Shown one piece after another: positions 32,101-35,100 of a DNA stretch of 64,000 bases (positions within the stretch are counted from its first letter, which is position 1; each line of letters starts with the position of its first letter). Below the pieces are notes generated by a model. It searched no databases, was not told where the DNA came from, and saw nothing but the letters and a program-made list of their open reading frames with translations. The translations under genes and the position numbers were made by a program. The DNA is from Flaccisagitta enflata (Eukaryota): the NCBI GenBank assembly GCA_965153355.1, contig OZ231126.1, forward strand, positions 35,340,001-35,404,000, read 5' to 3'.

Positions 32101-35100
32101 CAAAATAAAGCTAAAAACCTTGATTTTTTCTTTTTTTTTCAAAAAGCGCCTCAGGAAAGATTTTCTACTTGATGGTTTTTGGTTTCTATACTCATGAACT
32201 CTGCAAAAATGCAAAAAACTGCATAGTAATATCATTCTTGTCTCAAACCTTATGTGAGACAGTAGTGCAGGACGCATCTTTGCTCAGTCCGGCTAGTTTC
32301 TTACCAAGTGGTGATGAAAAATGCAAATGATATGAATGCGAGGCAATAGCTCAGCAGCAAAATCAGGATAACTCCAAGGTTAACATTTGGGTATATAATA
32401 ATGATTCCGATCGCGACAATAACGCTGGCAAAGACGGCCCCAGCTAGAGCTCTTGCCCACCAAGCGAACCACTGCATGCGTAATGACACTCCCATTATAC
32501 TGAGCATCTCTTTCATTCCAGATTCTTTTTCCTTTGCAACTATAAATATAAGTTCTGAGGAGGAATGGCAGAGAAAATTTAATGCCAGATTAAGTTTTTT
32601 TTTTACGCCATTTGCCCATTTTCATTTCTCAGCATTGTTCATGTTGTCCTAGACCTTCCAAGAAAACACATACATCTTCTTTACTCACCTACAAACATTA
32701 CCAAGTAAAACATAGCCATGCGACCCAGGACAGGTGCGCCTTGAAAATTGCTGTATTTTGGATAAGTAAATTTTTGAGCTGACACAAGGGGGAATGTTGG
32801 TTTATCCATATTCTCCGCTAAAAGCAACTGTGATATGCACCATTGTAATGCCATGAATCCTGTTTTGAGGAGGGGAGGGATAAGTTTTTTTGGGGTCGTT
32901 AAGACGTGTATGATTATTCTTGAAGAAAAGTTGTTTGAGAAATTCAGGCCCTTTATCAGATCGAAATACTGTAGTGCTTTTTTTAGCAGTGGCCAAATTG
33001 GGCTGATATCTTGTTTTTCCATCTGTTTATTCATTAAAGTCCCCATCAGAGTTCCTTCATCAACAAGGAGGTGTAGTACCAGTCGCCTGCGGTGGGGCAT
33101 GGACATGCGTGGGGGGGGGGGGTGGTCACCCTAGGGAGTCAATTTCTTGGCCTAGGGGTTGAATATAAAAACAACAGCTTGGTGATTCATTTTCTATAGC
33201 TGCGATGGTACTGGACAGTAAAATTGGTGTCAATCGCCCCGATAGTTTTACAGATTTGGATGGGGGATATAAGAAAATATCAGTAATATTGCGGAAGGAC
33301 CAAATTACGGATGGAATGACAAATAAACAAGTGATGCGGGGCCGCAATATCATTTCAGACGGGAGGGCAGGAGCATGCAACCCCAAGCCCCATCCCAAGC
33401 CCACCCCAAGCCACCCCTGCCACGCACTCACACAATAACAACTGCAGTATCATAAATGAACGTTTTTTTGTGTTTTCAACTCAAGCATGACGGACCAACG
33501 GACGCACCAACAGACCAATGAACAGATGGAACAAGCCTCTTATAGAGTTGCATATCCGCTACTAAAGATGGCACTGGGAGAGTTAGGTGCGTGGGACTAT
33601 CAAATGGTCTAACCTCTCAAGTAGTAATCAGGTGTTCCAGCAAATGCCAAACGATTATTTGGACCCCGAAAAGTAGAACTTTTTGAGGCAACGCGGTACT
33701 CCGTCGACCATGCTTTACTTGTGTTCCTCGAACTCATCCTAGTATGAATAGATAGAAAACAAAGTCATAAGACCGACGTTGCGTGCGTCAAAATTTTCAA
33801 AGAAAGTCGGACAGACAGACAGATGAACAGGCAGACATACTATCTACAAAAAAAAAATCTTCACAATTTTGAATAAAGTTTATTTATGTGCCTATAAAAA
33901 TAGGGGTGTATAAAGTTGAGCGGCTTTGGATTTCCTTTCCCCCCTTCGCGTGGGTGGAGTGGGGTGGGTGGAGTGGGATAAAGTGGCGTTAGGTGTTTTT
34001 TTCCCTTCAGGGTGGGATTTGATGGACTGTGTAGGTGGGTTGTTAGAAATGTATGTCCGTCCGTCTATTAAGTATGTGTGCTTTTGTTTCTTTTGCGTGC
34101 TTTTGATTTTTCTTCTTTCCTTATTATTCAATGCCGGTGTCTTTTGTTTCTCGCCATTTCTTATAATGAAGGCTAGATGGGTAACCATATGGTTGCGCCT
34201 TGTATTTTATGCCATTTGTTTTTATTACGTAAACAAACATACGTAACTCGTCTTCGTGTCATCCAATTTTGGATCGATTGTTTTTATTTTTATTCACGGC
34301 ATTGCTTCCTAAAGTGATTGATTGATTTTTCGTGATTGATTGAATGTGCCCTTGGAATTTACTAATTTCAATAATCTCTCATCTTTTTATTGCAGATAAA
34401 CTTATGAACGGACAATTTACGTTAATTTGACTTCGACAGACTGTGGGTTGAAACCAACGAAAGTGGGCCTAAAAGTAAGTTTTATAGACGCGTTTTTGCT
34501 TTTAGTAACTTTGTTTTTATCTTGTCTTCCGGTCTGTTATTTTTGTCTTTGTGCATTTTTGCATTTTTATCGCCGGATTGTAGTATGGTTTTTATCGTTT
34601 GCCCGATCAGCTTACTATGGGGATGATATGGATGAATTTAATGGGATGGGCCGGGGCAGGGGCAGGTATTATCAGGTGGCATGGGCTCTGAAGAAGATGA
34701 ACATGTTGTCATGTGCTGTTTCTGTCCTTTATTGTGTCCTGTCTCGATTTCATGTTATCTTTTGCGTTTGCTGATCACCATTAACGCCCACTTTCCCTTT
34801 CATTTTTTCCCCTCTCTTCAGTTGTTGAAATTTTTTATGGAATAAACGAGACGATCGCCTTCCTATTTTCCAATCGGCCAACTTTCTTTCACCACAAGTC
34901 GTCAGTCAGATAGACGCTCATAGACAGTGCCAGTTGAAACTCGTGGGCGTAATTTATATTTCAACAATTTAAAAACGACTCGATTCTTTCCATCTTCGAC
35001 CTCCGAAAGCGAAATTGGACAATGGCAGCCGCGCGTAACGACGACACCGTCTCGACTGCTTCAACGTCCTCTCGTGTATCTCACTTCGGTTTGAATCAGT

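Follow-up and report, generated by a model that had tools for sequence, protein, structure and literature searches.

We analysed a stretch of 64,000 nucleotides from Flaccisagitta enflata (contig OZ231126.1 of assembly GCA_965153355.1, positions 35,340,001 to 35,404,000 of the forward strand; the whole stretch is called the window, and coordinates are counted from its first letter). It contains a long terminal repeat (LTR) retrotransposon of the BEL/Pao superfamily that may prime its reverse transcription with the 5′ end of its own RNA instead of a host tRNA. The element measures 13.2 kb (34041-47277), lies between two direct repeats and, like all its features described below, is read on the + strand. 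Its 5′ LTR (34041-34958, 918 nt, TGT...ATA) is 98.7% identical to the 3′ LTR (46363-47277, 915 nt), which marks the element family as young. A polypurine tract, AAAAATGGGGCAGAA (46348-46362), adjoins the 3′ LTR. The element was inserted inside one unit of a 71-bp satellite array (33900-34040 and 47279-49250) and is flanked by a target-site duplication (TSD), TGGGT, with its 5′ copy at 34036-34040 and its 3′ copy at 47278-47282. An uninterrupted neighbouring satellite unit represents the empty site and reads GTAGGTGGGTGGAG (about 47346-47359). Together, the 3′ LTR, the TSD and this empty-site unit pin the end of the 5′ LTR within 1 nt, at 34958 (with the 5-bp TSD TGGGT) or at 34959 (with a 4-bp TSD, GGGT). 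The initial annotation had set the end at 34958 from the 3′ LTR/TSD junction, and this holds apart from the ambiguity of one base. No further copies of the element were found within the window.

Within the element, gag and pol occupy two overlapping frames. The gag open reading frame (ORF; 35022-38837) encodes a glutamine-rich protein of 1271 aa with Cys/His knuckle-like motifs near its C-terminus and without a Pfam match. The pol region (38825-42885) encodes protease, reverse transcriptase, RNase H and integrase; it is open to 42046, after which frame changes break the integrase part. Pfam detected Peptidase_A17 (PF05380, E = 1.3e-28, residues 567-738 of the protein P0001) and DUF5641 (PF18701, E = 8.5e-20, on 42205-42885), the latter being the BEL/Pao C-terminal domain that follows integrase. 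Because of these two matches we assign the element, by its sequence, to BEL/Pao (Belpaoviridae), the superfamily that had been proposed for it at the outset. LTRs, a short TSD and a polypurine tract are present as well, as in BEL/Pao. Downstream of pol lies a 3.4-kb region (42886-46347) with short broken ORFs only, where two pieces tested gave no Pfam match and tblastn gave no match to the third ORF of a relative, contig L006. The Belpaoviridae profile of the International Committee on Taxonomy of Viruses describes priming by a host tRNA at an 18-nt site, which fits tRNA-Arg or tRNA-Gly, and a genome length of 4.2-10 kb (PMC8742986). The element, with its 13.2 kb, lies above this range, the surplus being made up of the 1271-aa gag and the 3.4-kb post-pol stretch.

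The primer position next to the 5′ LTR

During reverse transcription U5 ends where the 3′ end of the primer sits, a few bases trimmed by integrase aside. With the 3′ LTR ending at 47277 or 47278, annealing has to take place at about 34959-34962, and the 3′ end of the primer has to read ...GUUGAAA-3′. Mature tRNAs, which terminate in CCA, require a TGG at the primer site. A sequence scan found no TGG between 34945 and 35015, which rules out CCA-ended tRNAs only; this agrees with the initial annotation, according to which no TGG-starting, tRNA-complementary primer-binding site (PBS) follows the 5′ LTR. The element thus departs from the family description in this respect, and its BEL/Pao membership stands without a tRNA site, which is a descriptive and not a defining trait. 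As there is no TGG at the required position, the primer is unconventional, whatever its identity. The TGG at 34944 was rejected as a tRNA site, being inside both LTRs, and so was the TGG at 35016 as a distant one: according to the 3′ LTR, U5 ends at 34958/34959, so the primer sits there. The whole 64-kb window contained no tRNA genes and no Rfam matches at gathering thresholds.

The bases at the primer position find a partner inside the LTR. The proposed PBS, TTTCAACAATT (34959-34969), lies directly after the LTR without a TGG of the tRNA type. Starting at the first post-LTR base, it pairs with AGTTGTTGAAA (34820-34830) through 10 Watson-Crick pairs and 1 G-U, a count that we recomputed and that is the same as originally annotated. 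Complementarity of at least 10-11 nt between the post-LTR bases and the 5′ LTR is therefore present at offset 0 (11 pairs including the G-U), and a 12th pair is possible between T 34831 and A 34958. The same 11-mer recurs in the 3′ LTR at 47140-47150. The LTR arm of the helix begins on an Inr-like (initiator-like) motif, TCAGTT (34818-34823), whose predicted +1 A is 34820, and the only AATAAA of the LTR (34841-34846), the presumed polyadenylation signal defining a short R, follows 21 nt after 34820. Judged by these landmarks, 34820 appears to sit where R should begin, just upstream of the single AATAAA. If transcription started at 34820 and the RNA were cleaved ~10-30 nt downstream of AATAAA, R would measure ~40-50 nt, and even when the 11-nt primer is subtracted this would be enough for strand transfer. 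No candidate primer is visible in the sequence other than this 11-mer, where R is predicted to begin.

We propose, in partial support of the initial annotation, that minus-strand DNA synthesis starts on the element's own transcript and not on a tRNA. We consider this the best available explanation, with the chances of its being right and of its being wrong about balanced; the proposal is drawn from one copy of one family. Beyond the observed anatomy, the pairing and the absence of a site for a CCA-ended tRNA, we infer a start site, a cleavage by RNase H and the use of the 11-mer as a primer. Transcription would begin at or near A 34820 in the Inr-like TCAGTT, and polyadenylation after the single AATAAA at 34841 would give a short R and a U5 ending at 34958. 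The RNA would fold back so that its first 11 nt (34820-34830) pair with 34959-34969, directly after U5, and the element's RNase H would cut behind nt 11 (or 12). Synthesis would proceed from the 3′ OH released at 34830, and the first base copied would be 34958.

Chance estimates, predicted folding and rival explanations

How easily such a pairing arises by chance was estimated with shuffled and random sequences. A helix at offset 0 occurred in 8 of 1000 dinucleotide-shuffled LTRs and with 51 of 3000 random 32-mers from the window; when offsets of 0-5 were allowed, this rose to 60 of 1000 and 196 of 3000, respectively, with 355 of 6000 in a larger shuffle set. A helix whose 5′ end fell exactly on an Inr-like +1 was found in none of 6000 shuffles, and one within 2 nt of it in 10 of 6000, although these joint figures are post hoc and have to be discounted somewhat. 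The combination is hard to obtain by chance, and the position of the helix on the Inr-like +1 adds most of the weight.

These figures bear on the main rival of self-priming, namely priming by a non-canonical host RNA. This could be one half of a tRNA or an internal piece of one, as in Drosophila copia and some plant copia lineages, or another small RNA ending in ...GUUGAAA-3′; the match of 34820-34830 would then be a coincidence in AT-rich DNA. The helix alone is only moderately unlikely in such DNA, arising in 0.8-6% of the controls, and the 11-mer is no rarer in the window than expected (8 occurrences with at most 1 mismatch against 6.5). Moreover, the LTR 11-mer deviates at one base from a perfect complement of the site. 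Priming by half-tRNAs has been described for other superfamilies of LTR elements (PMC6317226). The coincidence with both an Inr-like +1 and the single AATAAA would, however, be as rare as the joint counts above indicate, and the Rfam search of the window returned no family above threshold. In addition, the leader has a complement with very high AT content that does not resemble the anticodon arm of a nuclear tRNA. On balance we think a host-RNA primer somewhat unlikely.

In the predicted fold of the RNA from 34820 to 34975, the 11-nt helix is present in both the minimum-energy and the centroid structure, with pair probabilities of 0.93-1.0 for 10 of the 11 pairs and of 0.47 for the terminal A-U pair. 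It thus dominates the predicted ensemble of the R-U5-PBS region, and only 4 of 2000 shuffles gave a better two-arm duplex. A helix that dominates the ensemble could also be a real RNA structure with a role other than priming, for instance in packaging or dimerisation or in regulating how the primer site is reached. Retroviruses have pairings between U5 and the leader around their primer sites, which would be a parallel for such a role. This explanation leaves the primer unaccounted for, though the paired bases fill the exact primer position, and the searches for relatives yielded no comparative support for it; we judge it improbable.

A number of other observations weigh against self-priming. 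Several concern the pairing itself. Strictly after the LTR there are only 9 contiguous Watson-Crick pairs, and 10 are reached only if 34958 is counted. On the favourable side, the element nearly satisfies a published computational rule for self-primers (PMC6317226), a blastn-style rule that asks for a complementary stretch of 10 bp or more, beginning 0-5 bp beyond the 5′ LTR; by this rule the pairing is borderline. The G-U at primer position 2 is common to both LTRs. The Tf1 primer is copied into plus-strand DNA, and a full PBS copy is retained in about half of Tf1 cDNA (PMC11042837). Such copying should tend to convert the wobble into G-C over successive cycles, and the persistence of the G-U counts as a difficulty. 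The wobble would last only if selection held on to the G, which completes TCAGTT, or if copying stopped short of the capped 5′ end. The PBS may also have a competing partner within U5: GTTGAAA (34933-34939) and 34959-34965 could pair locally as a 7-bp stem with a 19-nt loop, a possible competing or regulatory hairpin that is not favoured in the predicted ensemble.

Other difficulties lie in the promoter and in the fold as a whole. The initial annotation had placed the start of the 11-mer on the +1 A of TCAGTT, 21 nt before AATAAA; the positions are correct, but TCAGTT is one of three motifs of the TCAKTY type in the LTR, the others being at 34800 and 34902. The LTR contains no TATA box (TATAWA), and no downstream promoter element (DPE) was read from the sequence at the canonical spacing. 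The fold of the whole R-U5-PBS region is ordinary (z = -0.93, 37 of 200 shuffles being as stable). Two further helices that had been suggested to close the loop (34835-34839 with 34948-34952 and 34846-34850 with 34940-34944) do occur in the minimum-energy fold, but 803 of 2000 shuffled arms did equally well, and we rejected them as evidence.

Copies, transcripts and relatives of the element

The summed depth in DNA run X1 (organism A) was very high over 34041-36040, indicating that the family is extremely abundant. Because the LTRs are 98.7% identical and the X1 depth is very high, the lineage to which this arrangement belongs has transposed successfully, a point in favour of self-priming. Marine metagenomes and metatranscriptomes from several studies also contained words of the family. 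Another favourable point is that in the DNA runs U3 and gag carried many variants, and no substitution lay between 34779 and 34989 among the 40 of 99 variants listed. The nearest listed indels were in the T-run at 34831 and the A-run at 34970, both just outside the 11-mers. As no listed variant changes either 11-mer, their conservation is uninformative about pairing. The same lack of listed variants in R-U5-PBS also speaks for the alternative that the helix is a real RNA structure with another function.

The RNA data stand among the points against self-priming. Contigs of metatranscriptome X15 covered the region, and one of them (record 13) spanned 34904-35056 with 1 difference; being assembled, they do not reveal where RNAs end, and some may derive from DNA. 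From about 6% of the host polyA RNA run X22, no read fell on the LTR or on the leader; the reads on the stretch were 4 partial ones, all near 35950 in low-complexity gag sequence. The small-share runs X18-X20 are excluded from the evidence.

The integrase of the sequenced copy is not encoded intact, despite the young LTRs: its coding sequence is spread over three overlapping frames (38825-42046, 41781-42425 and 42205-42885), and tblastn of the related protein P0003 gave 93% identity up to about 41950 with a frame shift beyond. This is a further difficulty for self-priming, and it fits the explanation that the primer site has decayed or is non-functional, in this copy or in the whole family, and that the pairing is meaningless. 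The near-identical LTRs, the intact TSD and polypurine tract and the great abundance of the family speak against decay, as does the recurrence of the same junction in contigs of independent runs (the X15 record above). We regard decay as the least likely explanation and as very improbable.

Relatives of pol (P0003-P0023) were found in metagenome assemblies only, with 34-93% identity, among them lineages at 74% and about 35-50% (P0004-P0023), and close relatives carry PF17921 and PF18701. Against named BEL/Pao proteins (from coral, barnacle and fish) the identity of the element's pol does not exceed 27%. By appearance the pol clade is a BEL/Pao lineage from animals of the marine plankton that has not yet been described. 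It is conceivable, though we lean towards doubting it, that this whole marine lineage (the pol clade P0003-P0023, with long elements and a giant glutamine-rich gag) dropped tRNA priming and independently evolved self-priming of the Tf1 type. None of the 8 related pol contigs from metagenomes (1.2-5.1 kb) reaches a 5′ LTR, and hence there is no covariation support for the 11-nt pairing, which also has to be counted on the negative side. L002 starts inside gag, L003 and L004 start 360-850 nt before pol, and L006-L008 stop short of any LTR.

Protein, alignment and U5-end DNA pattern searches returned no relatives in viral contigs, and an alignment scan returned none in prokaryote genome contigs. 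One 19-nt match to the U5-end pattern (L009) was rejected as chance; it lies in unrelated, coding-like sequence of a contig from a bacterial metagenome-assembled genome. L006, whose pol is 39% identical, has an intact third ORF of 765 aa after pol (2510-4807). Its protein, P0041, is proline/serine/arginine-rich and of low complexity, is not an obvious envelope and had no tblastn match in the window. Outside the element, the window contains no ORFs of at least 250 aa. Long arrays of short tandem repeats lie at 15830-17000 (period ~8-12 nt), 57620-58500 (11 nt) and 62000-62460 (10 nt).

Known self-priming elements and the meaning of the locus

Finally, we compared the element with systems in which self-priming has been proven or proposed. 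Self-priming is proven only for Tf1; it has been deduced from sequence for Tf2, Tj1, Maggy, Skippy, Cft-1, Boty, Grasshopper, Afut1 and vertebrate elements of the sushi group, as well as for the plant Tcn1 clade and the plant copia lineage TAR (PMC6934838, PMC4600332 and PMC6317226). According to the same papers, Tf1 and Tf2 of Schizosaccharomyces pombe and the Tf1/sushi group have no tRNA site next to the 5′ LTR, and the element, having no TGG there, resembles them in this. It also resembles Tf1, as portrayed there, in that the post-LTR bases are complementary to a 5′ LTR segment taken, here by prediction, as the mRNA 5′ end, with an 11-nt duplex in both. For Tf1 there is a mapped start site, an RNase H cleavage and genetic proof, whereas the present element is known here from its sequence. 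A stem like the adjacent U5-IR of Tf1 has a counterpart in the element that is without statistical support.

In contrast to the Tf1/sushi elements, which are Ty3/gypsy chromoviruses, the element belongs to the BEL/Pao superfamily and has one G-U in its duplex. The pol of the Tf1/sushi group is of the Ty3/gypsy type, while the Pfam matches obtained here are BEL/Pao-specific and the relatives are all proteins with PF05380 and PF18701. The element would, on the evidence of its sequence, work like Tf1, yet it falls outside the Tf1/sushi family. The plant Ty1/copia lineage TAR (Houba, Osr-1) matches it in the kind and strength of evidence, as self-priming was likewise deduced there from complementarity alone (PMC6317226). 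TAR belongs to a different superfamily and kingdom, and there the prediction recurs across the lineage, compared to one copy of one family here. With canonical BEL/Pao elements (genus Semotivirus: Pao, BEL, Tas, Cer, Sinbad and others) the element shares the domains, LTRs, short TSD, polypurine tract and overlapping gag and pol. It differs from them in having no 18-nt tRNA site, in its length of 13.2 kb, in its 1271-aa gag and in a pol that is at most 27% identical to the named proteins.

We found no proposal of self-priming in BEL/Pao in the full-text literature, a search that left most subscription journals and supplements outside. The BEL/Pao survey PMC3118150 contains no occurrence of PBS, primer binding or tRNA. 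The outcome of the literature search accords with the belief expressed in the initial annotation that no demonstration exists for BEL/Pao, and the taxonomic profile of the family gives tRNA priming (PMC8742986). If confirmed, self-priming in this element would be a known mechanism at work in a superfamily from which it had not been reported, and the present case would be the first one proposed for BEL/Pao. It would mean that self-priming arose independently in a third LTR superfamily, and in animals, and if the whole lineage self-primes, this would be a convergent solution across all three superfamilies of LTR retrotransposons. Such elements would escape host silencing that is based on tRNA fragments and aimed at primer sites. 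Self-priming would also give a reason why families of this kind may be overlooked or misjudged by annotation pipelines in which a tRNA site is mandatory.

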